From a bacterium (GTDB lineage Bacteria; Bacillota_I; Bacilli_A; Izemoplasmatales; Izemoplasmataceae), in NCBI GenBank assembly GCA_018400875.1, contig JAGYLV010000001.1, forward strand, positions 77,847 through 141,846: 64,000 nt of DNA, read 5' to 3'. Shown piece after piece: positions 1,354 through 54,956 of this stretch; the stretch's first letter is position 1; the number at the start of each line of letters is the position of its first letter. The notes beneath the pieces are model-generated. The model did no database searches. It was not told where the DNA came from and saw nothing but the letters and a program-made list of their open reading frames with translations. The position numbers and the translations under genes are program-made.

Positions 1354-4191
1354 ATGAAAAATGCCATTGCCAAGCAAGCTGAAATCAATCAAGAACTTGC
1401 GACACTCATTGATGAAGATCTCAAGCAAGAACAAGAATTACTCAAATCCCTCATTAAAGAAATTCTTGAGGCGAATGAGAAAATTAAGAATGCGCATTTT
1501 GAACGCGTTCAAGATACGGAAGCTAAATTAAAAGTTCTGAACTCCGAAGTCAAACGAATTCGCCGGACCATCAAAAAACAAGATGATGTGGTCACAAAAA
1601 AACGGCTCGAACTTCTGGGTGAGACCAAAGAAGAGTATTTTGACACATTGGCGGAAATGCGCTTGTCCGATGCGAAAGAGCACTTTGCCAATCCGCTGCG
1701 GAAGCATTTAGCCGATCTCAAACGCCAGTTTAGTCAATCACTTAAATCTTCCAGCCCCGCCATTAAAGACATTCAAGAACCGATAGAAGCGTATTTTGAG
1801 GCGTTAACTGAGAGTTTAGAACACGATTTTTCTTTCAGTCATTTAGCCCTTGATGAATCCTATAACCAGCTCGGTGGAACCACCGATCATCTGCAAAGTG
1901 CGCTGGAACCCCTCGCACCATTCGCAGAAAATATCTTTAAAACGTTTAAAGAGAAGCTCGAAACCCTGCTTTCCTTTTTTGATACGTCTGAACTTGACGA
2001 TCTCGTGGATGAAATTCAATCAACGAAAGCCAATGACCTCGATCAACTCAGCCAACAAAAAAAGGCCATTGATGAGGCTTTAACCGATGAACTAGAAAGG
2101 CTGGATGAAGCCTACTTAACCCAAGTGGATGACGCCCGTAAAGAAGCGCTTCAAGATGCCAATATATCTCTTTCCGAGACGGATAAAACGCTCTTAGATG
2201 CCTTCAAACATGCGGCCAGAGAATGGATTAAATCCGCCGATTCTCATCCATCTGCGCAAGCCTTAAAAACGTTAAAAAGTACCCAAAAAGCGTGGTCCAA
2301 GACACGGCCCGGGAAAACCACCAAGAAAATCGACAAAGCGTTTAAGAAAAACGCATCCAGCATCTTAGATGCAAAATCCCAAAAACGTTCCGAACATCTC
2401 GAGCAATCCTATGAAATCCGGATGCAAGATAAAGAGCGTGAAATCCAAGCCCTCATTGACATCAGCTCACTCAAAATGCGGACGCTTTTGACCTATTTAG
2501 AAAATCAAGAAGAAACACTGCTTTCAACGTTTGCGTTCATGGAAGATCTATTAGAATCAGGCTATGCGCTTGAACTGGCCTTAATTGATTTGGATCACAC
2601 CTTGCAAGTGGCACGCTTCCAAGCCGCCAAACGCACGCAAGAGTTGCGGCTTCAAAAGACCGAACTGTATCGCCGGTACGAACGGATGGTGCAGCGTTTA
2701 GAAGTTGAATCCCTCGATCTTTTAGAGCGCCAGCATATGACGTTTAAAGATGTGCAACTGCAAATGGATTTTGCCCTGGAAAAAGAACGCTTAGAAATCA
2801 ATCGCCTTTATGGGCTGCATAAAATATTAGACAAACGCGTGCAATTTATTGGTAAAAGCAAAGTCAAACGGATGGATGAACTCAAAGAACTCAAATTCCA
2901 ATTGTTCCAAGATGAAGCCGATATTGCCCTCGCCGAAAAAGAATATGACATCCAAGTGTTAAAAGCGCAATCCCTCTACGATCATGAAAAAGCCATCAAT
3001 AAAGTCCAATCCGAACGCATTGATGCGGGGGTAAGGGTCAATAAAGCGATGGTTCAAGCTACGGTCAAACGCCAGGTGAATTTTGCCGATCAACAGATTA
3101 AGTTTGCCGAGGCCGAATATGCCGCCCGGATGGAACACATTGAATACACGTTAAATCAAGAACTGTCTTACGCCGAAGAAACCTTGGGGTATCACGAGAA
3201 AAACTACGCGGCAAAGCGCGAAGAGATCGAGCAAGAATACGAGTCGAAAAAGCACTCCTTGGTCCAAAAGAAAAAGCTCTTTGAACATTCGCCCATGCTG
3301 AAAAAAGTCTTGTTGGAAGAAAAGGAAGTCGACGAAGCGTATCAAGAGCGTCTTCTCGCCTTTGAAGAACAACTGGCCAATGACATTTCCATTAAGCGCT
3401 ACCGCGAGCAAATTCAAAAGGCCCATGATCACGCTGAAAAAGCGCGAAACGATGCTTTAAATCTCCGGGATAAAGACATCGAAAGCTTCACCGCACTCAA
3501 AGAAGAATCCCTCGCCCGTTTAGCCAATGTCGAGAAAATGATGGCGGGTCCTGAACTCTTGCCTTATCATGAAGAAAGCGTAAACGATCAAGCCAGCGAA
3601 CGCCTTCAAGCCATGCTCAAAACCGCGGAAGATTTCCTTGAGGAAAAAACGGCGGAACCCAAAGCCCGCTTAGAAGACATCAAAGGGCGTATTATCGAAC
3701 TGGAAAAAGGCGATGTGGATTCCACGACGGTCAGTGAACTGAGCCGTCAAGAACAAAACCTCAACCAATCCTTTGCCGATCGCGTGCAAGACTTAGAGAA
3801 TACACTCAAAGAAAAACGTGCACTGCTTCTCACTCAAACCGAGCAAGCCCAGGCCCGTTCCCAAACGATCATTGAAGCCATTGACCGGGAACTGGCGGAG
3901 CCTATTCAAGTGTCATCAAATCATCACGCCGCACTCGTCGCAGCGATTGAAGCCAAAGAAAAAACGCTTCAAATCACCCACGAACAATGGCGATCTGAGC
4001 GTTTAATGAAGAAAAACGAACGACTCAACGTGCTTAACCGGACGCAATCGACCATTAAAAACCGGTTGATTGATACGTCGGTGAAAACGCAGATGAAAGT
4101 TGAGAAGATTGAAAATCTTCAAAACAAAGCCATCAGTGAATCGTATAAAATCTTGCACAAGCAATTTAAGAAAGATAAAAAAGCCCTTTAA
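1354..4191 (+). CDS. Large coiled-coil protein (945 aa), function unknown
   Basis: Long uninterrupted ORF with an AAGGAGG-like RBS at 1341-1348, 16 nt after the previous stop. Composition is dominated by E/K/L/Q/A and no enzymatic motif or TM segment was recognised. Confidence 0.65.
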   Translation: MKNAIAKQAEINQELATLIDEDLKQEQELLKSLIKEILEANEKIKNAHFERVQDTEAKLKVLNSEVKRIRRTIKKQDDVVTKKRLELLGETKEEYFDTLAEMRLSDAKEHFANPLRKHLADLKRQFSQSLKSSSPAIKDIQEPIEAYFEALTESLEHDFSFSHLALDESYNQLGGTTDHLQSALEPLAPFAENIFKTFKEKLETLLSFFDTSELDDLVDEIQSTKANDLDQLSQQKKAIDEALTDELERLDEAYLTQVDDARKEALQDANISLSETDKTLLDAFKHAAREWIKSADSHPSAQALKTLKSTQKAWSKTRPGKTTKKIDKAFKKNASSILDAKSQKRSEHLEQSYEIRMQDKEREIQALIDISSLKMRTLLTYLENQEETLLSTFAFMEDLLESGYALELALIDLDHTLQVARFQAAKRTQELRLQKTELYRRYERMVQRLEVESLDLLERQHMTFKDVQLQMDFALEKERLEINRLYGLHKILDKRVQFIGKSKVKRMDELKELKFQLFQDEADIALAEKEYDIQVLKAQSLYDHEKAINKVQSERIDAGVRVNKAMVQATVKRQVNFADQQIKFAEAEYAARMEHIEYTLNQELSYAEETLGYHEKNYAAKREEIEQEYESKKHSLVQKKKLFEHSPMLKKVLLEEKEVDEAYQERLLAFEEQLANDISIKRYREQIQKAHDHAEKARNDALNLRDKDIESFTALKEESLARLANVEKMMAGPELLPYHEESVNDQASERLQAMLKTAEDFLEEKTAEPKARLEDIKGRIIELEKGDVDSTTVSELSRQEQNLNQSFADRVQDLENTLKEKRALLLTQTEQAQARSQTIIEAIDRELAEPIQVSSNHHAALVAAIEAKEKTLQITHEQWRSERLMKKNERLNVLNRTQSTIKNRLIDTSVKTQMKVEKIENLQNKAISESYKILHKQFKKDKKAL

Positions 4192-11938: not shown

Positions 11939-12283
11939 CTTGCATTGCATAAGCCATGTTCTGTCCCCTTAAAAAAGGGTGGCAACCATTTATCTGTACA
12001 ATGTACCTCGGCGTTAAGTTCAGTTCCTCACGCCAAGTGCCCCTACCAAAATTTGGGTTTCTAGCTTGCGGGGTTTACCCGTTCCACCTCTTTTATTGCT
12101 AAAAGAGCTCGTCTCTGTGGCACTTTTAAAGATACTCAAGACTTATAAAGCCTCTTTCTCAGCCGTCACCCTTGCGGGTGCATAGAGTTATGGTTTCCTC
12201 TATCACAATCACTACAGGCAATCGCAGCCTGTGCTAGCATGGACTTTCCTAACCATTACTGGCTCGGTTGCCTACAATGCAAG
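11939..12283 (-). ncRNA. rnpB: RNase P RNA, type B (Bacillus type)
   Basis: The minus strand carries AGGAAAGTCCATGCTAGCAC, AAGTGCCACAGAGACGAGCTC, GGTAAACCCCGCAAGCTAGAAACCCAAAT..GGTAGGGGCAC and ACAGAACATGGCTTATGC. P1 pairs CTTGCATTG (5' end) with CAATGCAAG (3' end). Confidence 0.93.
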
Positions 12284-31997: not shown

Positions 31998-33083
31998 TTA
32001 AGCAAAACTGTCGTAATAGGTATGTTCTCTAGGGAGATCGTGTTTATTGAGGACGGCGATGCAGGCATGAATCATCCCGGGGGACCCACAAAGGTAGGCT
32101 TCCGAGCCTGCCAAGTCACCGGTCATCCGGTCTAAGACATCGGTAATGAGGCCGGTTTCACCGTCCCAGTTATCTTCCGGTAAGGGTTCTGAAAGAGCGG
32201 GAATGTATTCAAAGTTCGGAAATTCTTTTTGCAGTTCAACAAATTCTTCGGTGTAATAGAGATCTTTTTTGGTTTTTGCCCCAAAGAAATAGCGAACTTT
32301 ACGCGGCATATTGAGGTCTCTTAAACGGTAAAGAATCGAGCGGATCGGTGCTTTACCCGACCCCCCCGCGATACAGACAATATCGCGATCGGATTCTTCT
32401 CTTAAGTAAAAGTCGCCATACGGCCCCGTGATTTTCATCGGGTCACCCGGTTGCATCACTTCGTGAATAAAGGTCGTGGCGACCCCTTTATGGACCAAAC
32501 GGACTAAGAATTCCACGTGGTCTTTGACTTTCGCATCGCCCGCGAAGGAATACGCCCGGACCGCTTCCACCCCAGGAATGATGAACTGCGCGTATTGTCC
32601 GGGATGAAAATCCAAGGTTTTCGGATTAATCATTTTAAAACGGACCAGTTTGATGTCATATGTGAGGTCTTCTAAGGCCGCCAGTTCGACGTCGTATTCT
32701 TTGGCGCCAAATAGACTTTCGGGAATTTCAATTTTAGTATCTTGAGCAATCCGGGTTTGGCAAGAAAGTCTGATGCCGTTGGCCGCATCTTTCGGGCCAA
32801 TGAAAGGTTCTTCCGTCGGTTTAAGATCAAAGGCACCTTCGGTTACTTTGACTTTACATAACCCGCATGTCGCTTTTCCTCCGCACGCGGAAGGAATATA
32901 TATTTGATTTTTAGAGAGTATATTGAGTGCGGTATCTGATTCATTGATTGGAATTTGCAAGGAATCATTGACCGTTAATATTTTTTCACCACTGTTGCCA
33001 AAGGCGGTTTCGGCGGCAACGAGTAATAGACTCATTAAGACAAGCATGCCAATGAGGATGCTAATGACAATAATCGGTTCCAT
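31998..33083 (-). CDS. nqrF: NqrF-type subunit: TM anchor, 2Fe-2S ferredoxin domain and FAD/NADH-binding reductase domain
   Basis: 361 aa with an N-terminal TM helix, CGGKATCGLC...C (plant-type 2Fe-2S), RAYSF (FAD) and GGSGKAP (NADH). Confidence 0.85.
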   Translation of the reverse strand: MEPIIVISILIGMLVLMSLLLVAAETAFGNSGEKILTVNDSLQIPINESDTALNILSKNQIYIPSACGGKATCGLCKVKVTEGAFDLKPTEEPFIGPKDAANGIRLSCQTRIAQDTKIEIPESLFGAKEYDVELAALEDLTYDIKLVRFKMINPKTLDFHPGQYAQFIIPGVEAVRAYSFAGDAKVKDHVEFLVRLVHKGVATTFIHEVMQPGDPMKITGPYGDFYLREESDRDIVCIAGGSGKAPIRSILYRLRDLNMPRKVRYFFGAKTKKDLYYTEEFVELQKEFPNFEYIPALSEPLPEDNWDGETGLITDVLDRMTGDLAGSEAYLCGSPGMIHACIAVLNKHDLPREHTYYDSFA

Positions 33084-33092
33084 CGTTTCCTC

Positions 33093-33677
33093 CTAAAAGA
33101 ATGAGAGTCCAGTAAAGCCAATAAAGGCTAAGGATAAAATCCCCATGATGATGAATACAATCCCGCGGCCGGCGAGGCCTCTTGGGACGGTGGAATGATT
33201 TTCCATTTTTTCACGAATGGCCGCAATCAAGATAATCGCTAAGGCCCAGCCAATCCCGGCCCCGAGTGAAAATGTGGCGGTTTCTGCAAAGTTATAGCTC
33301 CGGTTCACAAAGAACTGAGACACGGCTAACACGACGCAGTTCACCGTAATGAGGGGGAGAAATAATCCAAAGTTGTTATACATTCTGGGAGATACTTTTT
33401 CAATAAAGATTTCTAAAAACTGAACGGTCGTCGCAATGGTAATGATGAACACTAAAATGGATAAACGCTCAGTCCCAGTCGCTTCTAACAATAAATAAAT
33501 GGGGTAGTTAATGACCGCGGTTAAAAAGACCACGAAAATAACGGCTAAGCCCATCCCTTTAGCATTTTTTACATTCGTCGAGATGGCAATGAGTGGACAC
33601 ATCCCTAAAATAAAGATGAGGGCAATGTTTCTAGAAAGGACCGATTCAATAAAAACTTCAATTAAATTAATCATCAT
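33093..33677 (-). CDS. nqrE: NqrE/RnfA family membrane subunit
   Basis: 194 aa, 6 TM helices, with conserved cysteines in GMCPLIA and NCVVLA. Confidence 0.8.
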   Translation of the reverse strand: MMINLIEVFIESVLSRNIALIFILGMCPLIAISTNVKNAKGMGLAVIFVVFLTAVINYPIYLLLEATGTERLSILVFIITIATTVQFLEIFIEKVSPRMYNNFGLFLPLITVNCVVLAVSQFFVNRSYNFAETATFSLGAGIGWALAIILIAAIREKMENHSTVPRGLAGRGIVFIIMGILSLAFIGFTGLSFF

Positions 33678-33684
33678 CTACCCC

Positions 33685-34320
33685 CTATTCCGCTGCCACT
33701 TCAAAGTTTTGGGCCCATTCACGGACGCCCCAAATGATTAAGCCGAGGACGAAGAATCCACCAGGGGCTAAGGCCATAACGGTCCAGTTCACCCAGGTTT
33801 CTGGCATAACACGGAAGTTAAGGATGGTTCCAAAGGCTAAGGCTTCACGGATAATCGCCACCGCGATTAAAATCCAGGTATAACCCAAAGAGTTGGCAAT
33901 GCCATCAAAGAACGTATACTTCATCGGATTTTTAACGGCAAAGGCTTCGGCGCGTCCCATGACGATACAGTTGGTGACGATTAAGCCCAAATACGCTCCG
34001 AGCGCTGCGGCAATCACCGGGAAATACGCTTCTAAAAACATTTGCACCATGATCACAAAAGCCGAAATGATCACCATGTAAGTGATCATACGGACCCGGG
34101 CAGGAATCACTTTACGGACCATGGAGACCACCAAGGAACTGGCCGTGACCACAAATGTAACGGCAAGACCCATGGCAATCGCGTTCTCCACACGGTTGGT
34201 CACGGCTAAGGCTGAACAAATCCCCAGTACAGCCACGACAATGGGGTTTTCTTTGAATAAGCCATCTTTGGTGATGTTAAACCATTTTGTGTATTGAATC
34301 TTTATCCAAAACTTTCGCAT
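33685..34320 (-). CDS. nqrD: NqrD/RnfE family membrane subunit
   Basis: 211 aa with GICSALAVT and TNCIVMGRAEAF motifs. Confidence 0.8.
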   Translation of the reverse strand: MRKFWIKIQYTKWFNITKDGLFKENPIVVAVLGICSALAVTNRVENAIAMGLAVTFVVTASSLVVSMVRKVIPARVRMITYMVIISAFVIMVQMFLEAYFPVIAAALGAYLGLIVTNCIVMGRAEAFAVKNPMKYTFFDGIANSLGYTWILIAVAIIREALAFGTILNFRVMPETWVNWTVMALAPGGFFVLGLIIWGVREWAQNFEVAAE

Positions 34321-34919
34321 TATTCGCCTCCGAGTGTGGCTTGATACGCCGGTATAACTTGTTCATAACTATCGTTTAGAATGGTTTGGAACGCACTGGA
34401 TGTTGAAGTTGCTCCGGTAATCGCATCGACTTGATTGGGTGCGCTTGCGCCTTCTTTTAATACTTCAACGATGGGGTCAAACACGACCCCTTCGTATTTT
34501 GCGAGGTAGGGAATTTCAACAATCCGGCCACCGAGGCCCGGGGTTTCTTGTTGGGCAAGGATGCCGATATTTTCAATGGTTCGAAGATCTTCGTTAAGTG
34601 TTAAAACACCAATGATCGGTCCCCATACACCACCGCCTTCAATTTCAAAGCTGATGCTTCCTGTGTCTGGGTTACGGTAGACTGGAACATCCACCCCATC
34701 GATGGTGAGTTCCACTTTTTCGACGTTCGCGGTGAACGTGTCATATATATTTGAGGTGTTATATTGGATTTCAAACGCATCTAATATTTTAGATTGTAAT
34801 AACGCTTCTTCGTTGCGCGTGATACGCTCTGAGGTCAAGACGTCCATGCCAATGAGCAAGGTCGATGTGATAACCCCCATCGCCACGACAAATCCCATAA
34901 TTTTTAAAATTCGGTTCAT
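34320..34919 (-). CDS. nqrC: NqrC/RnfG family FMN-binding subunit
   Basis: 199 aa with an N-terminal TM anchor and the flavinylation motif D-A-I-T-G-A-T-S near the C-terminus. Confidence 0.8.
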   Translation of the reverse strand: MNRILKIMGFVVAMGVITSTLLIGMDVLTSERITRNEEALLQSKILDAFEIQYNTSNIYDTFTANVEKVELTIDGVDVPVYRNPDTGSISFEIEGGGVWGPIIGVLTLNEDLRTIENIGILAQQETPGLGGRIVEIPYLAKYEGVVFDPIVEVLKEGASAPNQVDAITGATSTSSAFQTILNDSYEQVIPAYQATLGGE

Positions 34920-35857
34920 GCCGCTTCCTCCTTACCTGTTAGCCATGCATCAATGAGAGCCCCCACGGCGCTCATAATGATGATGGCAAAAATAAAGCCT
35001 TCTGCAAACGTCGCAAAATAGCGAATGATAAAGGTGATGAAGGCGACGCCGGCCCCATACAGCCATATGGCTTTTTTATTCACAGGGGCATGGACAGGGT
35101 CACTGGCAATGAATATGGCCCCAAAAAGTAATGAGCCCGTAAACACTGAAGGAATCGTCCCCCCGGTCGCGCCGAAGAGTTCGAATATCCCAGCAGTCAC
35201 GATATAACTGACTAAGATCGACACCGGTAAGCGCCAATCAATGACTTTTAAGAAGGCTAAAATGGCACCTAAGCCAATGAGTAATAGTCCGAAGGTTTCC
35301 CCGGTGTTGCCCGGTACAAACCCTAATACTAAATCACTCAAAGGATAAAATGTCGATCCACTCGCATTAATCTGATGCAGCGGCATCACAGGTGCTAAGG
35401 CATCAAGTGAACTTTGGGAGAATGGATTAAACCAACCAAATGTTTGGGGGTCATACCACCCAAAGATTAAAGCTGGAAACGAAATCATTAAAAACATAAT
35501 CCCTACAGCGGCGGGATGGAAAATGGTTTTTCCGTAACCACCGAATAATTGTTTGGCAAATAAATTTCCGAATACAACGCCCACTCCGGCCATCCACAAT
35601 GGCGCACTGGGGGGAAGCATTAACGCATAAAGTAAAGGGAAGACAAGCCAACCTTCATCGATTTTTTTCTTTTTAGTACGGGCAAAGACATAATCAACCC
35701 CTACACTAAGGGCGATGGAAAGCCCCGCGATTACTAAGACATACCACCCAAAAATCATAAAGGATGCAGCTAAAATAACCCCTAAGGCGGCCTCTAAATA
35801 GAGCAGTTTTTTACCGGTAATAGCTCGGCTGACAAACGCAGGTTGCGAGTCACTCAT
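34916..35857 (-). CDS. nqrB: NqrB/RnfD family membrane subunit
   Basis: 313-aa polytopic protein that overlaps the next gene by 4 nt. Its size is closer to RnfD than to NqrB. Confidence 0.75.
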   Translation of the reverse strand: MSDSQPAFVSRAITGKKLLYLEAALGVILAASFMIFGWYVLVIAGLSIALSVGVDYVFARTKKKKIDEGWLVFPLLYALMLPPSAPLWMAGVGVVFGNLFAKQLFGGYGKTIFHPAAVGIMFLMISFPALIFGWYDPQTFGWFNPFSQSSLDALAPVMPLHQINASGSTFYPLSDLVLGFVPGNTGETFGLLLIGLGAILAFLKVIDWRLPVSILVSYIVTAGIFELFGATGGTIPSVFTGSLLFGAIFIASDPVHAPVNKKAIWLYGAGVAFITFIIRYFATFAEGFIFAIIIMSAVGALIDAWLTGKEEAA

Positions 35858-38381: not shown

Positions 38382-38981
38382 CTATTTGTTTAGTGCCTTG
38401 ATATGAGACAAGGCAACGTCCATCACGGTTTTGTCATCTTGATTGGCATCAACAATCACATACGGCACATCGTGAATGAGGCACTGGGCCTCTAAGAGTT
38501 TGACATAATCTTTCAGCAACGTCTTGAAGTAAGGAATGTTGGCATCAAAATTATCAATTTCTTGTTGGCGACCCCGTTTTTTTAACCGATCTTCAAACGT
38601 GTCCCAGCTGACATCTAATATGATATACAAATCAATCGCTTTGACGTCATTCATGTAGGCACTGAAGACGCCATTGTAAAAGTTTTTAATGGTCTTATCT
38701 TGGATATTTTTTTGGGCAAACAGCCAGTGTTCGATCATATGACGATCGATGATGACATTATCATCATAGGTTTTTTGGGTTTTCCAATGTTTATGGAGGA
38801 AATATATTTGCAGAAGCATTTCAACATCATCCATGCCTTCATACAACCATTTTAGCAAGGTATTAAAAACCGGGTCTTCTTTCGCAAATTCATCCATAAA
38901 TGGCACATCTAAAGCAGCGCCAAGTTTTCTAACTAATGTACTTTTTCCTGAGGCAATCATACCTCCAATGGCTACGCGCAT
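38382..38981 (-). CDS. Deoxynucleoside kinase (dAK/dGK family)
   Basis: 199 aa with the P-loop GMIASGKST and an overall dNK family layout. Confidence 0.75.
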   Translation of the reverse strand: MRVAIGGMIASGKSTLVRKLGAALDVPFMDEFAKEDPVFNTLLKWLYEGMDDVEMLLQIYFLHKHWKTQKTYDDNVIIDRHMIEHWLFAQKNIQDKTIKNFYNGVFSAYMNDVKAIDLYIILDVSWDTFEDRLKKRGRQQEIDNFDANIPYFKTLLKDYVKLLEAQCLIHDVPYVIVDANQDDKTVMDVALSHIKALNK

Positions 38982-39049: not shown

Positions 39050-39085
39050 CCAAAAAAAAACCAACCCCGAAAGGTTGGTTTTTTG
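39050..39085 (-). terminator. Intrinsic terminator after the rhodopsin gene
   Basis: Stem aaccaacc/ggttggtt followed by T9 on the minus strand; there is also a T run on the plus strand. Confidence 0.8.
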
Positions 39086-39099
39086 AACAAATATTTAAT

Positions 39100-39903
39100 T
39101 TACGCTTCCACGTATCCTTGTTCTTCAGAGAGCCATGTCGATGAAACATTAAGCATAACTCCATAGAAGATTTTGGATGTCACGTCGGCGATGGTGTAAA
39201 GCACTTGTTGTGCGACAATCGCTAAGGCTGCTACTTCGGAAGCTGAGCCACCGAATAAAGGCATTACGTAAGCGATTGGGTAGATGGTCCATGCCACATA
39301 GAATAAAGGTAAGATGGCGGCGAAGAGTGGTTCTGCTTTGCTGCCTTTCATATTAGCACGGCCTTCTTTAATCACTTGTGTAATGAGGACTAATACCCAA
39401 ATGTAGAAGAGTGTTGAAATGACACCCCAGACGATCCACATAGTGATATCAGTTTCAGCGCCACGGCCTGGTTCATAGTACTGACCAATGTAACCAGTAA
39501 TGATCATGAGTGACCCACTGGCGGTGAAACGCACTAAGTATTTCTTAAATGCGGCACCTGCAATCCCAGCTACGAAAAGAATTTGGATGAGAAGATGTGG
39601 GACATCAATCAACCAGTTCAAGTAACGGAATCCGTTGGTGAAAGTGCTTTCGCCAGAAGCCACATATTGGCTACCTTCTAAGACGAATGCATCGGCCCAA
39701 CTTTGGGATTGTAAGAATAAGAGTAAGAACGCTGATACCATAACGACACCAGAAAGTACACTGGAAGGACGATATCTTGGTGCGTTATTTTTAATGGTTA
39801 ATACGAAATAAAGAAGTGCTGCCCCCATAGCAGCAAATCCAAAGGTTAAAACATGTTGCACAACTTCAAATTGCCATACTGCTAAGCTGCTTAAACCTGT
39901 CAT
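39100..39903 (-). CDS. Microbial (type-1) rhodopsin with an NDQ motif, predicted light-driven Na+ pump (KR2-like)
   Basis: 267 aa, 7 TM helices. Helix C reads R93-Y-L-N96-W-L-I-D100-V-P-H-L-L-I-Q107. Helix G reads D240-V-T-S-K244 (Schiff-base lysine). Codons were checked in the DNA: AAC at 39618-39616, GAT at 39606-39604, CAA at 39585-39583, AAA at 39174-39172. An AAGGAGG RBS precedes the ATG. Confidence 0.9.
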   Translation of the reverse strand: MTGLSSLAVWQFEVVQHVLTFGFAAMGAALLYFVLTIKNNAPRYRPSSVLSGVVMVSAFLLLFLQSQSWADAFVLEGSQYVASGESTFTNGFRYLNWLIDVPHLLIQILFVAGIAGAAFKKYLVRFTASGSLMIITGYIGQYYEPGRGAETDITMWIVWGVISTLFYIWVLVLITQVIKEGRANMKGSKAEPLFAAILPLFYVAWTIYPIAYVMPLFGGSASEVAALAIVAQQVLYTIADVTSKIFYGVMLNVSSTWLSEEQGYVEA

Positions 39904-40017
39904 TTGTTCCTCCTTGATATATTATAAAGATACATTTATTGTACTCCTATCGATTAAACATTACAAATAGAAACGCTTACAAAGTATTTATTTGAAAAAA
40001 AATTTAGGCACATTGCA

Positions 40018-40046
40018 CAAAAAAAGCATACCATTTGGTATGCTTA
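40018..40046 (-). terminator. Intrinsic terminator after the lipoprotein gene, upstream of the rhodopsin promoter
   Basis: Stem aagcatacc/ggtatgctt followed by T7 on the minus strand. Confidence 0.8.
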
Positions 40047-40058
40047 TTAAACTATTTT

Positions 40059-40895
40059 TTATTCCGATTGGTTGGATTCACGAAGTGCTTCAAGTTCCTC
40101 TTTGAACTGCCTAAATTGTTCAACAAGTTGATCTTTTAATTCTTCGCGCGATTCCGGGGGCACTATTTCACCCGCTTCGACCGCCGCGTCGTATTCGGCG
40201 ATGCGTGCTTCGACTAAGGCTTTGATTTCTTCTTTGATTACAGAGGCTTCTTCTTCACGTTCGGCTTTGTAAGCGTCAAAGCGCGATTGGAAATCAGCTT
40301 GTAACTTTTCTGTGAGCACTTCCGGATCGGTTTCTAAGGCCGCTTCAAAGGTGAGTGTCTCATCGTTTCGCATGGCGGCACGAATCAGGATAATTCGACC
40401 GACGGATACATCGTTGGCTTCAGCTTGCTCACGGATGTCTTCGTAGTACTCTGCACCATTTTCAACAGCCGCTTGAATACCACTGGTACTTAAGTGCTCG
40501 GCAATTTTTGCTTGCACTTCGTTTTGGAAGGCTTCGTAACCCGCTTCCGCTTCTTGTGTAATGGTGACAACGACGACATTATCGGTCCGAGTAACATCGA
40601 CGTAGCCGGTTTCAATGGCGGCGTCTAGGAACAATGCTAACGCGTCATCGTAAGTCAACCCAATAAAGGTTAAGTCCGCTGCCACAATTTCGGCATCTTC
40701 ATTCGATAGGACATATCCGGTAATCACGCCGTCTTCATCGAGAGTAAACGTGATGGATGGATTAATGTCCACCGTAATGAAGGTGGAGGCATCTTGAGGA
40801 TCATACGTCGGGGTTTCATTGGATAAAGTAGGTTCTGCACACGCAGCTAAAAAGAAAACCGCTAAAAGTGTGAATGCTAGAAATAGTTTTTTCAT
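40059..40895 (-). CDS. Acidic Glu/Ala-rich lipoprotein, function unknown
   Basis: Signal peptide with lipobox LAAC. The start was chosen at ATG 40895 (MKKLFLAF), which has a GAAGGGA RBS; the longer ORF start at 40913 has none. Confidence 0.6.
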   Translation of the reverse strand: MKKLFLAFTLLAVFFLAACAEPTLSNETPTYDPQDASTFITVDINPSITFTLDEDGVITGYVLSNEDAEIVAADLTFIGLTYDDALALFLDAAIETGYVDVTRTDNVVVVTITQEAEAGYEAFQNEVQAKIAEHLSTSGIQAAVENGAEYYEDIREQAEANDVSVGRIILIRAAMRNDETLTFEAALETDPEVLTEKLQADFQSRFDAYKAEREEEASVIKEEIKALVEARIAEYDAAVEAGEIVPPESREELKDQLVEQFRQFKEELEALRESNQSE

Positions 40896-40980
40896 AAGTA
40901 TCCCTTCTTTCATCTATATTATATGCTTCTAAGTCACAGACTACAAGTAAATAACTTTGAGATTGCTAGATGTTTTACAG

Positions 40981-42996: not shown

Positions 42997-43083
42997 TGGT
43001 GCGAATGGGGGGAGTTGAACCCCCACAGCCTTGCGGCCACATGGCCCTCAACCATGCGCGTCTACCAGTTCCGCCACACTCGC
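42997..43083 (-). tRNA. tRNA-Leu (anticodon GAG), CCA encoded
   Basis: Manual fold: acceptor GCGAGTG/CATTCGC, anticodon loop TTGAGGG, long variable arm, T-loop GGTTCAACTCC. Confidence 0.85.
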
Positions 43084-43086
43084 AGG

Positions 43087-43161
43087 TGGTGGAGAATGAC
43101 GGATTCGAACCATCGACCCCTTGCACGTCAAGCAAGTGCTCTCCCACTGAGCTAATCCTCC
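43087..43161 (-). tRNA. tRNA-Val (anticodon GAC), CCA encoded
   Basis: Manual fold: GGAGGATTAGCTCAGTGGGAGAGC, anticodon loop TTGACGT, T-loop GGTTCGAATCC. Confidence 0.85.
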
Positions 43162-45331: not shown

Positions 45332-45350
45332 AAGAACTCCTTAAATGAAG

Positions 45351-45424
45351 CGTTCCGGGAGGGATTCGAACCCCCGACCTGCAGCTTAGGAAGCCGTTGC
45401 TCTATCCTACTGAGCTACCGGAAC
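45351..45424 (-). tRNA. tRNA-Arg (anticodon CCT), no encoded CCA
   Basis: Manual fold: acceptor GTTCCGG/CCGGAAC, anticodon loop TTCCTAA, T-loop GGTTCGAATCC. A TATAAT at 45433-45438 lies 8 nt upstream. Confidence 0.8.
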
Positions 45425-46401: not shown

Positions 46402-46475
46402 TGGAGCGATAGAGGGGAATCGAACCCCCGTCTTCACCGTGGGAGGGTGACGTTCTACCATTGAACCACTACCGC
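46402..46475 (-). tRNA. tRNA-Gly (anticodon CCC), CCA encoded
   Basis: Manual fold: GCGGTAGTGGTTCAATGGTAGAAC, anticodon loop CTCCCAC, T-loop GGTTCGATTCC. Confidence 0.8.
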
Positions 46476-46482
46476 ATAATGA

Positions 46483-46559
<77 letters not shown>

Positions 46560-50603: not shown

Positions 50604-51362
50604 TTATGCTTTTTCGATCAATGCAATGAGCTCTGCTTTTTTCAAACTGGAATAGCCTTCTAATCCTTTTTCTTTAGCAAGGGCTTTTAATTCAGCAACG
50701 GTCATGCCACTTAAATCTGCGGTTGCTTCTTTTTTCGCCGCAGGTTTAGCTTTAGGCGCCGCTTTAGCCTCCACTTTGGGAGCTGCTTTAGCTTTGGATT
50801 CTGCTTTGGGAGCCGCTTTAGCTTTGGGTTCTGCTTTGGGTTCTGCTTTAGGCGCCGCTTTAGCTTTGGGTTCTGCTTTGGGTTCGGCTTTAGGAGCCGC
50901 TTTAGCTTTGGGAGCCGCTTTAGCTTTGCTTTCAGCTTTAGGCGCCGCTTTAGCTTTGGGTTCTGCTTTAGGTGCTGCCTTTGCTACTTCCACAGGCGCT
51001 TTTGGATTGGCAATGCCTTCTTTGGCTTGAGCCACTAGCGCTTGGAATGCTTTGTCGTCGTTAATGGCAAGGTCGGCTAAGACTTTACGGTTTAAGACGA
51101 CATTGGATTTTTTGAGTCCATTCATAAATTGGGAATAACTCATCCCATGAATGCGGGCCGCAGCGTTGATTCGGCTAATCCAAAGTTTACGAAAATCACT
51201 TTTCCGTTTTTTCCGGTCTCTGTATGCATACATGAGAGATTTCATTACTTGTTCATGGGCGGTTTTGTACAGTAAATGTTTCGATCCAAAGTATCCTTTG
51301 GCGAGCTTTAATACCTTTTTGCGTCGTTTACGGGCGACGGTCCCACCTTTAACTCGAGCCAT
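50604..51362 (-). CDS. rplT: 50S ribosomal protein L20 fused to an Ala/Lys/Pro/Glu repeat tail and a C-terminal Rho_N/SAP-like domain
   Basis: Residues 1-118 are canonical L20 (MARVKGG...RKVLADLAI). Residues ~121-211 are [10 protein letters not shown]-type repeats. Residues ~216-252 read [36 protein letters not shown]. Confidence 0.9.
50730..51002 (-). repeat. In-frame degenerate tandem repeats encoding (A/E)(K)(A)(A/E)PK units within rplT
   Basis: The DNA shows iterated gctttagctttggg(t/a)(t/g)c(t/c)gc units. The antisense ORF 50704-51030 is an artefact of these repeats. Confidence 0.85.
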
Positions 51363-52294: not shown

Positions 52295-52954
52295 TCAAAG
52301 GAGGTCTTTTCTTAAGGCGATAAACCCCATCGCGCTCACGCCAGTGAGTAACATCGTTCCGATTTGCCAAAGATTGACCGGCGCTGATTCCATAGAACTT
52401 AGGGAAAATAAGGGCCACCATCCGTGCAGGAAGGGTATATTTGGCTCCAACCAAAAAAGCATGATTTGGAGGCTCGAAAGGGCGAGCCATGCCAGCGGCT
52501 TTAAACCTAACCCCATTCCGATACCGATCATTAGACTCCACGCGGCGATGGTTCTAATAAGCGCGCCCATAAAATCAAGCGGCACGGAATAATAGACGCT
52601 TAAAACCACGGTAAAAAGCGTGCTCATAGACAGTGAAATAAACACGCTGGAACTGTAAGAGAAAAATAAAAGAGCGATCGTTTTCAACCGGCCACAGCGT
52701 GACATGTAAGGCGTCCACTTCGCAAATGGGTGCCATAAAAAATAAGCTAAGACTCCAATCACACCGTGTTGAAGTATCCAAATGAAAACGACCCATTGTC
52801 GAATGAAGCCTTCCCCCGTGCGCGCCCACGTAAAATAGCTTAACCCGCGCGGTGTATGCATGAATAGGGCAAAGATAAACGCCAAAGCATGGGCTATGAA
52901 CGTGGCTTTCAAAAGGAATGAAAGCTCGGGAAAGTGAAACATAAAGCGTTTCAT
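52295..52954 (-). CDS. ABC-2-type-like polytopic membrane protein (putative permease partner)
   Basis: ~6 TM helices. The ATG at 52954 overlaps the TGA of the upstream ATPase gene (ATGA). Confidence 0.5.
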   Translation of the reverse strand: MKRFMFHFPELSFLLKATFIAHALAFIFALFMHTPRGLSYFTWARTGEGFIRQWVVFIWILQHGVIGVLAYFLWHPFAKWTPYMSRCGRLKTIALLFFSYSSSVFISLSMSTLFTVVLSVYYSVPLDFMGALIRTIAAWSLMIGIGMGLGLKPLAWLALSSLQIMLFWLEPNIPFLHGWWPLFSLSSMESAPVNLWQIGTMLLTGVSAMGFIALRKDLL

Positions 52955-53472
52955 GAAAAGTTGACCACTGGCCAACCGGGATAGACCGCCGGCGTGTGCG
53001 TGATGATGCTTACGGGGGGGTTAATGGCTTTTAAGACCCGCATGGCCCATTTTGCACTAAAAACATCTAACCCATGCAGGGGTTCATCCAATAAATAATG
53101 ATCCGCTGGCCATGACAAGGCATAGACTATCCGGAGTTTTTGGCGCATGCCTGTGGAGCATTCATTGACCGATAAAACATATTGATCGGGGTGGAAAAAG
53201 TCATGAAACAAAGCCCGGGCGTCCCCTTTTAAAAAAGGAATAAACGCTCCGATGGTCTTTTTGGGTAAGGGAAATTCCACCGGCATGTAAAACACATGCG
53301 CGGGTTTAACCATCCTTCCTTGATAATCAACAAGTCCCGCACAGGCTTTAAAAAGGGTGCTTTTCCCGCACCCATTTATCCCGTTTAAAAGGCATTTCTC
53401 GGGAAGCGCTAATGTATTTAATTGAATGCTCGCATGGCGGTAGTGTTTAGAAAAATCATTAATTTGAATCAT
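52951..53472 (-). CDS. Minimal ABC transporter ATPase (173 aa)
   Basis: Walker A GINGCGKST, degenerate signature CSTGMRQK, Walker B YLLDEP and H-loop IITH. The protein ends just after the H-loop. Confidence 0.65.
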   Translation of the reverse strand: MIQINDFSKHYRHASIQLNTLALPEKCLLNGINGCGKSTLFKACAGLVDYQGRMVKPAHVFYMPVEFPLPKKTIGAFIPFLKGDARALFHDFFHPDQYVLSVNECSTGMRQKLRIVYALSWPADHYLLDEPLHGLDVFSAKWAMRVLKAINPPVSIITHTPAVYPGWPVVNFS

Positions 53473-54397
53473 CCCGTTGTCCTTGGATTAATTGATCTAT
53501 ATGAATGCGCCTCTGGATAAATAAAAAGGGCGCGATGCACTCTTCTTTCAAGATTGAACCTTCTTTAAAGCCCAAGCAAACCGGGACTTCGCCGACCGGT
53601 GCGAGCGGATGATACGGGACAATCATCGTCTTAGTTTCACCGGGCTCGATGGGGGCTAATGAATGGGGCGTATAATCGCTCAATGGTTGACCTGCAATAA
53701 AGGAGTCATTCGTCATATGGATGACTTCACGGGGGGCCAATAAGTCGCTAAACCCAAGGTGAATCTGCGCAATGTCTAAGGGGACGCTGGTCCGGTTTTT
53801 CACCCGAATATAAAGACCTTCCAAGTGCTCATCTTGAAACAATCCGTAAAGACTTTCTATACTAAATGATTCCAAGGTATCGGGTGTAAAAACGCCCACA
53901 TGGATGCCGCCAAATTCTATGACTTCATCGTTGATTAAGCGGATCGATAGCGTCGCATTCTCAAAGCGTGTGGGATGAGTCGCAGCGTCCCAAGGGAAAC
54001 TGAGTATAAGATCCGTCGCATAAAGTGGCCCCGCTTCTAACGACTCACTGATGGCTTCTAAGCGAAGGGAGACCTCACTGTCTAAAGTCTTAAGTGTGAT
54101 CCCAACGATGGCCTCTTGATAAAGAAAAGGGTGGGTTGAAGCCGGATGATATAGCGTCCATGTGAACGTTTCATCGGGGATGAGGGCAATGCGTTCAGGG
54201 GCCATATATAGGGTGGAGTCAATGGGCTTAAGCCGCATCCATGTAAGCCCTAAAAGACTAACGAAAAGAATGATCCAAAGGGACTTTTTCAATGCCGTAA
54301 TACTCCGTCGCCAATATAAAATATTCGTATCCTCCTTCTCTGACCGGTCTAAAAAAGCGGTAAAATTTCGCCACCCCATTGGTGATATACCCTTCAC
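53459..54397 (-). CDS. Single-pass membrane protein with a large extracytoplasmic domain, unknown function
   Basis: Cytoplasmic N-terminus, one TM helix (SLWIILFVSLLGLTW), then a ~260-aa beta-rich domain. The start is uncertain (ATG 54397, ATG 54379, or ATT 54322 after an AAGGAGG at 54331-54337). Every option overlaps the upstream gene. Confidence 0.5.
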   Translation of the reverse strand: MKGISPMGWRNFTAFLDRSEKEDTNILYWRRSITALKKSLWIILFVSLLGLTWMRLKPIDSTLYMAPERIALIPDETFTWTLYHPASTHPFLYQEAIVGITLKTLDSEVSLRLEAISESLEAGPLYATDLILSFPWDAATHPTRFENATLSIRLINDEVIEFGGIHVGVFTPDTLESFSIESLYGLFQDEHLEGLYIRVKNRTSVPLDIAQIHLGFSDLLAPREVIHMTNDSFIAGQPLSDYTPHSLAPIEPGETKTMIVPYHPLAPVGEVPVCLGFKEGSILKEECIAPFLFIQRRIHIDQLIQGQRDDSN

Positions 54398-54893
54398 CGT
54401 AAATGGCGACCCTCAGTGAGGTTCCCGGGTCCACTTCGATGTCTATTTGGGTTTGTTCTTCAATGGTTTTGACGGTGGAATTGGAATAAGACAAATCAAG
54501 CTTAGCCTCTAAGTTGAGATCAAACCCCTTGACTTTGCCTTTCATGCGGGTGGTGATTTGACCCCGGGCATCGTATTGAATTTTCGATTGTTCGCTCACT
54601 TTGAGCGTGTACGATTGTTCAATCGGGGTGATGCCCGCGTTATCAATCATGAGGACGGTTTCTTTGGTGAAAAGCACTTTTTCATGTTCGGTGACGGGTT
54701 CAACGATCCATCCCCAAAAGCGTTTGTCGTCAATACGGTTTAAATAGCGGGTCATATCCAAATGGGAAAAGTCATTTAAGAAAGACCGGTTAGACTTGGT
54801 GAAATGAATCGTTTGGAAGTGCGTGTATTCACTCGCCTGGACTGACTGGGGCATCCACGCCAGGATCATGCAAAAAATCAACAGCCATTTCAT
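54258..54893 (-). CDS. Secreted beta-rich protein, unknown function
   Basis: The start was chosen at ATG 54893 (MKWLLIFCMILAWMPQSVQA signal peptide), which has an AAAGGAGG RBS. The mature part is rich in alternating polar/apolar beta-strand patterns. Confidence 0.55.
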   Translation of the reverse strand: MKWLLIFCMILAWMPQSVQASEYTHFQTIHFTKSNRSFLNDFSHLDMTRYLNRIDDKRFWGWIVEPVTEHEKVLFTKETVLMIDNAGITPIEQSYTLKVSEQSKIQYDARGQITTRMKGKVKGFDLNLEAKLDLSYSNSTVKTIEEQTQIDIEVDPGTSLRVAIYGEGYITNGVAKFYRFFRPVREGGYEYFILATEYYGIEKVPLDHSFR

Positions 54894-54956
54894 TACTTGC
54901 CTCCTTTTACTTAAACCATTCACTGAAAAGCGAAATTTACTCATAAAAAAAACACT

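Follow-up and report, generated by a model that had tools for sequence, protein, structure and literature searches.

The DNA analysed is a stretch of 64,000 nucleotides (64 kb; hereafter the window) from contig JAGYLV010000001.1 of an Izemoplasmataceae genome (GCA_018400875.1). Its reverse strand carries a gene for a type-1 rhodopsin with the NDQ motif of the light-driven sodium pumps (NaR family), which is set out with the other features of the window in Table 1. An in-frame stop codon upstream bounds the open reading frame (ORF), so that 267 amino acids is the maximum length of the product. A preliminary description, made from the sequence alone, had pictured a monocistronic gene between two terminators with a perfect AAGGAGG ribosome-binding site (RBS), and both the site and the two hairpins were found. 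Since the gene is bracketed by these hairpins, it forms its own transcription unit. The promoter-like sequence upstream is a weak candidate, being a consensus match only, of a kind that does not occur above shuffled expectation. An Rfam scan gave nothing near the gene, indicating that it has no riboswitch or leader.

When the translation was checked and the codons were read directly, the residue numbers given in the preliminary description for helix C (R93 to Q107) and helix G (D240, K244) proved exact. The helix-C string RYLNWLIDVPHLLIQ begins at residue 93, and the helix-G string YTIADVTSKIFYG begins at residue 236. In HMMER and MAFFT alignments, the hexad R93/N96/D100/Q107/D240/K244 corresponded column for column to R109/N112/D116/Q123/D251/K255 of KR2 (Krokinobacter eikastus rhodopsin 2), the prototype NaR. 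The description had staked its reading on N, D and Q standing at columns 85, 89 and 96 of bacteriorhodopsin (BR) and on a lysine in helix G. A MAFFT alignment with BR confirmed both: N96/D100/Q107 fell on BR D85/T89/D96, D240/K244 on D212/K216 and R93 on R82, with helix C ungapped. By alignment, K244 is the Schiff-base lysine of type-1 rhodopsins (KR2 K255, BR K216), D240 is the second counterion, and S243 is the equivalent of KR2 S254. The window rhodopsin therefore carries the full RNDQDK hexad that delimits the NDQ rhodopsins (Podoliak et al. 2024, PMC11006869). In the same work, Subgroup 1 is distinguished by Leu or Ile at the position of KR2 L74 and Subgroup 2 by Glu; Leu61 places the window protein in Subgroup 1. 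A protein search over 5.8 billion sequences returned 1254 matches, of which the best 120 clusters, 59–93% identical to the window rhodopsin, were examined; counts out of 120 below refer to this set. The Arg and the NDQ motif of helix C were invariant in 120/120, as was the Leu at the L74 position.

The scores against Pfam and PDB, together with the column-exact alignments, put the match to the rhodopsin family far beyond chance. Pfam Bac_rhodopsin (PF01036) matched with an E value of 2.8e-38 and covered residues 15–251. The PDB search ranked IaNaR first (8JH0; E 5.2e-69, 236 bits), followed by KR2 (4XTL, 3X3B and others; E about 5e-60, 206 bits), ErNaR (8QLE; E 1e-51, 179 bits), the chloride pumps of the 5G28 family (E about 1e-44, 158 bits) and xanthorhodopsin (3DDL; E 6e-32, 115 bits). 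Entry 8JH0, deposited as 'Xanthorhodopsin', is the Indibacter alkaliphilus sodium pump IaNaR, which has been proven experimentally to pump Na+ (PMC10679507). The AlphaFold2 (AF2) model (pLDDT 93.4, pTM 0.88) has seven transmembrane helices, and its top 50 Foldseek matches in PDB were all Na+ pumps with TM-scores of 0.85–0.90 (0.86–0.89 for KR2). An NCBIfam scan of the rhodopsin matched no family, so that a curated NaR model is not available as a guide. Among the KR2 residues of the retinal pocket and ion path, 28 of 30 are identical in the window rhodopsin. Conserved from KR2, in addition to the hexad and S254, are H30 (H17 here), S64 (S51), S70 (S57), L74 (L61), W113 (W97), L120 (L104), E160 (E144), W215 (W205) and Y218 (Y208). 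The KR2 blocks named in the preliminary description (rylnwlidvpmllfqilfv, miitgyigqfye and ytiadvsskviygv) are all present in the PDB-search alignment. However, the phrase "nearly identical to KR2" was overstated, as whole-protein identity is 43–46% to KR2 and ~50% to IaNaR.

Table 1. Positions, strands and supporting evidence of the features of the window; positions are those of the window.
Feature	Position	Strand	Evidence or remark
Rhodopsin CDS, 267 aa + stop, NDQ-type (NaR family) opsin	39100..39903	(-)	ORF list, Pfam, PDB, AF2, Foldseek
Helix C, R + NDQ motif	39583..39627	(-)	Codons R93 39625-39627, N96 39616-39618, D100 39604-39606, Q107 39583-39585, read directly
Helix G	39172..39186	(-)	Codons D240 39184-39186, S243 39175-39177, K244 39172-39174 (AAA)
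Q232 codon (CAA), KR2 R243 / IaNaR R242 position	39208..39210	(-)	Clade-defining loss of triad Arg
Short N-terminus, 11 residues before KR2 Y25 equivalent, no capping helix, no E11	39871..39903	(-)	ORF bound, alignment, AF2
E144-P145-G146-R147, E160 equivalent then clade-specific insertion, extracellular D-E loop	39463..39474	(-)	Alignment
RBS AAGGAGG	39909..39915	(-)	5 nt before ATG, read directly
Promoter-like TTGTAA-17-TACAAT	39938..39966	(-)	Consensus match only, weak
Terminator-like hairpin, 12-13 bp stem + T-run	39055..39084	(-)	16 nt after rhodopsin stop codon
Terminator-like hairpin ending the upstream RsgI_M-domain lipoprotein gene	40024..40045	(-)	Sequence
RsgI_M-domain lipoprotein	40059-40913		Neighbour
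Deoxynucleoside kinase (dNK)	38382-38981		Neighbour
Nqr/Rnf-type cluster, five genes	31998-35857	(-)	B/D-like, C/G-like (FMN_bind), NqrD/RnfE-like, NqrE/RnfA-like, NqrF-like (2Fe-2S + FAD + NAD)
RNase P RNA, class B	11946-12279	(-)	277.6 bits
Five tRNA genes (Leu-GAG, Val-GAC, Arg-CCT, Gly-CCC, Arg-TCT)	42997-43161, 45350-45424, 46402-46559	(-)	3-7 kb from rhodopsin gene
Ribosomal protein L20 with C-terminal extension	50604-51362	(-)	L20 residues 3-109, Rho_N 216-252
Large ORFs, 433 aa and 945 aa	37-1338, 1354-4191	(+)	No Pfam family even at E 0.05
Overlapping ORFs	52295-52975, 52951-53472, 53459-54397, 54258-54944	(-)	Mostly without Pfam matches

To place the protein among the rhodopsins, a rooted neighbour-joining (NJ) tree with 200 bootstraps was built, using as outgroups the chloride pump NmClR (exactly PDB 5FJG/5G28) and Gloeobacter rhodopsin (exactly 6NWD); the placement rests on this distance tree with two outgroups rather than on a full maximum-likelihood analysis. 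All NDQ sequences, including the clade of the window protein, were monophyletic in 178/200 bootstraps. The NDQ sequences outside that clade were paraphyletic, indicating that the window clade is nested within the NaRs. The window rhodopsin thus falls with the NaRs and not with the NTQ chloride or DTE proton pumps, and the family call of the preliminary description was borne out by sequence, fold and phylogeny.

The extent of the clade was seen in a genome scan with one genome per GTDB species, in which the loci were labelled L001 onward and L001–L005 were the closest. Homologues 54–69% identical were present in Izemoplasmatales, Acholeplasmataceae, many metagenome-assembled genomes (MAGs) assigned to Bacilli or Bacillota, including river and lake ones as judged by MAG names, and Spirochaetes (Alkalispirochaeta, Salinispira). 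The next tier, at 41–51%, consisted of Chloroflexota, cyanobacterial and Bacteroidota NaRs. The window protein and L001–L043 formed one NJ clade in 200/200 bootstraps with the signature column removed and in 198/200 with the outgroups included; the window protein grouped with L001–L005 at 100%, and the spirochaete sequences were monophyletic at 100%. Bootstraps for the order of the subgroups (Izemoplasmatales versus Spirochaetes) were low, at 17–35. In total, the clade takes in 43 genomes and no fewer than 120 database clusters. Two members, L037 and L038 (CAMBSI01, CAMCVC01), come from MAGs titled 'Staphylococcus epidermidis'; they carry a freshwater Bacilli-type NaR nearly identical to those of uncultured river and lake Bacilli MAGs, and the species label of these records is probably wrong. 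The clade sequences could already be found in public MAGs, where the most specific annotation was 'bacteriorhodopsin'. In the open full-text literature, with subscription journals outside this coverage, we found no description of NaRs in Mollicutes, Izemoplasmatales, Acholeplasmatales or Alkalispirochaeta. The soda-lake study behind three of the MAGs did scan for rhodopsins, and NDQ rhodopsins have been noted in Absconditabacteria.

The feature that sets the clade apart lies on the extracellular side. Of the KR2 triad E11-E160-R243 under an N-terminal helix (N-helix), which is not a formal NaR-defining feature, the window protein keeps only E144 (E160). Gln replaces R243 in 120/120 relatives and in 43/43 clade genomes, whereas Arg occupies this position in 13/13 NDQ rhodopsins outside the clade and in NmClR. 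Likewise, the E11 equivalent is absent in 118/120 relatives but present in all 13 non-clade NDQ rhodopsins and in NmClR. It follows that the triad is ancestral and that its loss is derived. In the AF2 model, helix A begins at residue 9, residues 6–8 form a strand and the N-terminal helix is absent. E144 is followed by a Pro-Gly-Arg (PGR) insertion, which makes the D-E loop 4–5 residues longer than that of KR2 and does not occur in KR2, IaNaR or Chloroflexota NaRs in the alignment; its E and P are invariant among the 73 aligned clade members, and G and R are found in 70/73. Other changes relative to KR2 are N61 to S48, G263 to N252 and D102 to S86, and Asn at the G263 position is shared by 100/120 relatives. 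According to Podoliak et al. 2024, internal polar residues are conserved throughout the NDQ clade, and the triad is present even in Subgroup 2, as E5-E149-R234 of ErNaR (PMC11006869).

Whether a pump could work in this state is suggested by IaNaR, in which E10Q is nearly inactive while the double mutant E10Q/R242Q pumps again (PMC10679507). The natural combination of no E11 with Gln amounts to the same double change, so a working pump is plausible and the loss is compatible with pumping. R147 of the PGR insertion may replace R243 as the partner of E144, and the release side of the window protein differs from that of every characterised NaR. What is new here is that the whole clade has lost the triad; the family call is ordinary, and the host lineage is noteworthy although not unique to this genome. 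The preliminary description had stressed the likeness to KR2, which holds for the core motifs, but it had overlooked the missing triad Glu and Arg and the missing N-helix.

Considering the motif, fold, phylogeny and selective constraint observed here, we infer that this NDQ (NaR) rhodopsin probably binds retinal and uses light to pump cations out of the cell, most likely Na+. By homology to KR2 and IaNaR, K244 would carry all-trans retinal in a protonated Schiff-base linkage. Light would isomerise the retinal, and the Schiff-base proton would move to D100. Na+ would enter from the cytoplasm past Q107, S48 and N252, cross the neutral Schiff base, be bound transiently near N96 and D240, and leave past R93 through a vestibule lined with E144, Q232 and the PGR loop in place of the capped triad. 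In the cell, such a pump would be likely to export Na+ and so build up the sodium-motive force of a fermentative organism with an Nqr/Rnf-type complex encoded 3 kb away. A Na+/glutamate-symporter-like gene and a MatE (MATE transporter) gene in the window provide supporting context.

Several points weigh against this reading. The protein lacks the triad and the N-helix, to which both stability and the release of Na+ have been ascribed in KR2, IaNaR and ErNaR and which are described as conserved there, and the entrance residues are unlike those of KR2 (N61 to S48, G263 to N252) at positions that tune selectivity there. No transport, retinal-binding or spectral data were found for any clade member. 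The blh and crt genes that would supply the chromophore are absent from the 64 kb. Moreover, KR2-type pumps also move H+ when Na+ is lacking, so the physiological ion depends on the habitat. A second possibility is an NDQ rhodopsin with another substrate, mainly H+ or another cation such as K+, owing to the changed entrance residues S48 and N252 and to a vestibule remodelled by Q232, the missing N-helix and the PGR insertion. PDB titles list the KR2 variants G263F and S254A as K+ pumps, the triad is lost clade-wide, and part of the clade lives, judging from MAG names, in rivers and freshwater lakes where Na+ is scarce. However, the proven Na+ pump IaNaR has S and T at the same two entrance positions, and its E10Q/R242Q form still pumps Na+, while the core Na+-path residues R93, N96, D100, Q107, D240, S57, S243 and L61 are invariant. 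We therefore regard a different substrate as unlikely, and Na+ remains the preferred ion.

The preliminary description had reported no retinal or carotenoid genes in the window, and this stood: a Pfam search of the 58 window ORFs of at least 120 aa, with a second, more permissive scan of the seven ORFs that had no match, gave no Blh (PF15461), lycopene cyclase, phytoene synthase, phytoene desaturase or polyprenyl synthase. A tblastn search with spirochaete CrtY and Blh had no match in the window or in any Mollicutes/Bacilli locus, and no blh, crtY, crtI or crtB was located within 10 kb of any Mollicutes/Bacilli homologue. The 64-kb window thus holds no self-sufficient phototrophy cassette of opsin with linked blh and crt genes. 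Because no retinal-synthesis genes are linked to the opsin, in the parts of each genome that were covered, the Mollicutes-type hosts probably scavenge retinal from the environment. The same negative results could mean that the gene is a chromophore-less or otherwise non-functional relic in an organism unable to make retinal. This seems extremely unlikely, as dN/dS is ~0.04 over a long divergence, the lysine and pocket are intact in 119/120 relatives, the gene is equipped with a perfect RBS and a terminator of its own, and only part of the genome was seen. In addition, rhodopsin-bearing bacteria without blh are known to use exogenous retinal.

In the spirochaete part of the clade, the arrangement is different. 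An Alkalispirochaeta chromosome (L086 8963-13105, the same locus as L011) carries, in order, a MerR/B12-binding (LitR/CarH-type) regulator, the rhodopsin, crtY and blh. L013 has the same cassette, and the regulator alone was found in three more spirochaete loci (L009, L024, L043). The cassette suggests that Alkalispirochaeta-type spirochaetes regulate their Na+ pumping by light and supply it with retinal of their own. The regulator might call to mind a sensory or regulatory rhodopsin instead of a pump, but it fits regulation of the gene rather than signalling by its product; nothing specific speaks for such a role. Since no transducer or signalling gene is adjacent to the window rhodopsin gene, the full pump motif and carboxylates are present, and the closest characterised relatives are all pumps, a sensory function is hardly credible. 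In other Izemoplasmatales (L084/L085 206-9877), the rhodopsin lies 0.1–10 kb from msrB, an FMN_bind protein, an Fe-only hydrogenase module and a canonical RnfCDGEAB, with an Opp transporter on the opposite side and blh absent. This layout loosely recalls the Opp, Nqr-like and rhodopsin arrangement of the window.

The preliminary description had taken the host for a wall-less, low-GC, Mollicutes-like organism. The affiliation held, with near-identical syntenic contigs from Candidatus Izemoplasmataceae MAGs and an RNase P RNA of class B, but the window is ~45% GC, which makes the low-GC part an overstatement. NCBI taxonomy places Izemoplasmataceae in Mycoplasmatota, Mollicutes. The rhodopsins of L001–L005 are 91–99% identical to that of the window, and their MAGs are named Candidatus Izemoplasmataceae, Izimaplasma or 'uncultured Tenericutes'; the exact window rhodopsin is also on a Logan contig. 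In L001–L005 the gene occupies the same slot: a TrxR/Trx-like gene in one direction, then, in the other, genes for the RsgI_M lipoprotein, the rhodopsin, dNK, an ABC-F protein, NAT and NqrBCDEF-like proteins, followed by SBP5. The proteins that flank it in these five genomes have diverged to 42–70% identity. In L005 the dNK gene is absent, and the flanking proteins are 42–86% identical to those of the window compared with 91% for the rhodopsin. Nei–Gojobori comparison with the five orthologues gave synonymous divergences (dS) of 0.24, 0.31, 0.75, 1.19 and 1.60 and ratios of nonsynonymous to synonymous divergence (dN/dS) of 0.037–0.054, indicating that the rhodopsin diverged with these genomes under strong purifying selection.

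The description had further proposed a horizontally acquired, lineage-novel gene and a comparison of codon usage and GC at third codon positions (GC3) with the flanking genes. The GC of the rhodopsin gene (0.439) is within 1 standard deviation of the window genes (0.454 +/- 0.025), and its GC3 (z = -1.4) is the fourth lowest of the window genes and within their range. In synonymous codon usage, the rhodopsin gene ranks third among 58 genes for deviation from the pooled expectation (z -3.7), and several ordinary genes are equally deviant. A recent acquisition into this genome, for example from Bacteroidota, would account for the codon usage and low GC3 ranks, for the isolated monocistronic unit and for the higher conservation of the rhodopsin than of its neighbours between the window and L005. 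Yet the same syntenic slot is kept in five species-level genomes and synonymous divergence follows genome divergence up to dS 1.6, while the codon bias may equally reflect high expression. The nearest relatives are other Mollicutes and Bacilli, with Bacteroidota at 44–51% identity. No flanking direct repeats were found at the rhodopsin locus and there is no integrase nearby, the nearest integrase-family gene being 33 kb off. A recent import is therefore very unlikely, and it is largely refuted by the synteny, the dS values and the normal GC. With close homologues throughout related genomes, the rhodopsin is an old, vertically inherited and strongly constrained resident of the Izemoplasmataceae lineage, which, by the description's own criterion, speaks against a lineage-novel horizontal arrival. 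The only plausible transfer is an ancient one between wall-less Bacilli and Spirochaetes.

Beyond the RsgI_M-domain lipoprotein and dNK genes, the neighbours are genes for an ABC-F ATPase and an aminoglycoside N-acetyltransferase, and then the five-gene Nqr/Rnf-type cluster. NqrA, RnfC and RnfB genes are absent from this cluster, and its best NCBIfam matches are Nqr subunits, all below the curated cut-offs (nqrD 224.8 bits against 244.85, nqrF 251.5 against 295). It is kept beside the rhodopsin in L002, L003 and L005 and may represent an intermediate or reduced Na+-translocating complex in a Mollicutes-type genome. Elsewhere in the window, ribosomal protein L20 has a 140-residue C-terminal extension ending in a Rho_N domain, an unusual fusion. 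The two adjacent large ORFs at the start of the window lie in a region with strongly positive AT skew (0.25). In the run of overlapping ORFs at 52295-54944, the match of 52951-53472 is confined to the Walker-A end of an ABC ATPase; the run may reflect frameshifts or split genes, or else a diverged system of the ABC type. Around the five tRNA genes there was no sign of an integrated element.

To our knowledge, all structural and mechanistic work on Na+-pump rhodopsins rests on proteins with the E11-E160-R243 triad under an N-terminal cap. This triad has been invoked for stability and for the gating of Na+ release. Although the present clade has neither the cap nor two of the triad's three residues, strong purifying selection acts on it, and it provides a natural counterpart of IaNaR E10Q/R242Q. 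A 2023 survey counted 219 clusters at 90% identity for all NDQ rhodopsins, and this clade alone has at least 120 such clusters. Tentatively, the window protein might stand for a structurally distinct third type of Na+-pumping rhodopsin that is common among Spirochaetes and among wall-less Bacilli, namely Izemoplasmatales, Acholeplasmatales and their freshwater relatives. In this type, the release gate would have been rebuilt by loss of the N-helix with E11 and of R243 and by pairing of R147 with E144, with possibly altered release kinetics, pH dependence or selectivity, and retinal-scavenging phototrophy would feed a sodium cycle shared with Nqr/Rnf-type complexes; we hold this broader proposal to be possible but doubtful. 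The Izemoplasmatales and Acholeplasmatales are wall-less, small-genome fermenters usually described from dark sediments. The finding places light-driven sodium energetics in these orders, which probably depend on retinal made by neighbours. At 256–270 aa, the pumps of the clade are compact and might serve as optogenetic tools. No new function is added to those known for rhodopsins.

Among the characterised systems, IaNaR is close to the window protein, sharing RNDQDK, S at the KR2 N61 position, L at L74, H30 and E160, with a TM-score of 0.85–0.86. It differs in having an N-helix with E10 together with R242, and its E10-E159-R242 cluster gates Arg108 (PMC10679507); the window protein has neither and carries Q232 and the PGR insertion after E144 instead. 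KR2, also of Subgroup 1, shares the fold and most of the pocket and ion path, but the change of D102 to S86 removes its interprotomer Na+ site, in addition to the differences at the entrance and the triad. ErNaR of Erythrobacter sp. HL-111, a Subgroup 2 protein with an extra Glu counterion, has the same NDQ pump fold (TM-score 0.88–0.90) at 35% identity, whereas it has Glu at the L74 position, the triad and a short N-helix (PMC11006869). NmClR (PDB 5G28), an NTQ chloride pump of the sister family within the 'NQ' rhodopsins, is 38% identical and shares R, N, Q, D, K and the E160 equivalent; it has Thr at KR2 D116, keeps the E11 and R243 equivalents and stands outside the NDQ group in the rooted tree. 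The spirochaete members (Alkalispirochaeta and Salinispira MAGs; 61–66% identity) belong to the same triad-less clade with the Q232, N252 and PGR signatures. Their gene sits in a regulator, rhodopsin, crtY and blh cassette, which gives these hosts the means to produce retinal and probably places the gene under light control, while the Izemoplasmataceae gene stands alone. The sole precedent found in the open literature for a type-1 rhodopsin in a wall-less host is the xenorhodopsin of Haloplasma contractile, a wall-less member of the 'Tenericutes', which was read as an ancient transfer (PMC3198991). That protein is of a different class, related to Anabaena sensory rhodopsin, and is not an NDQ pump.

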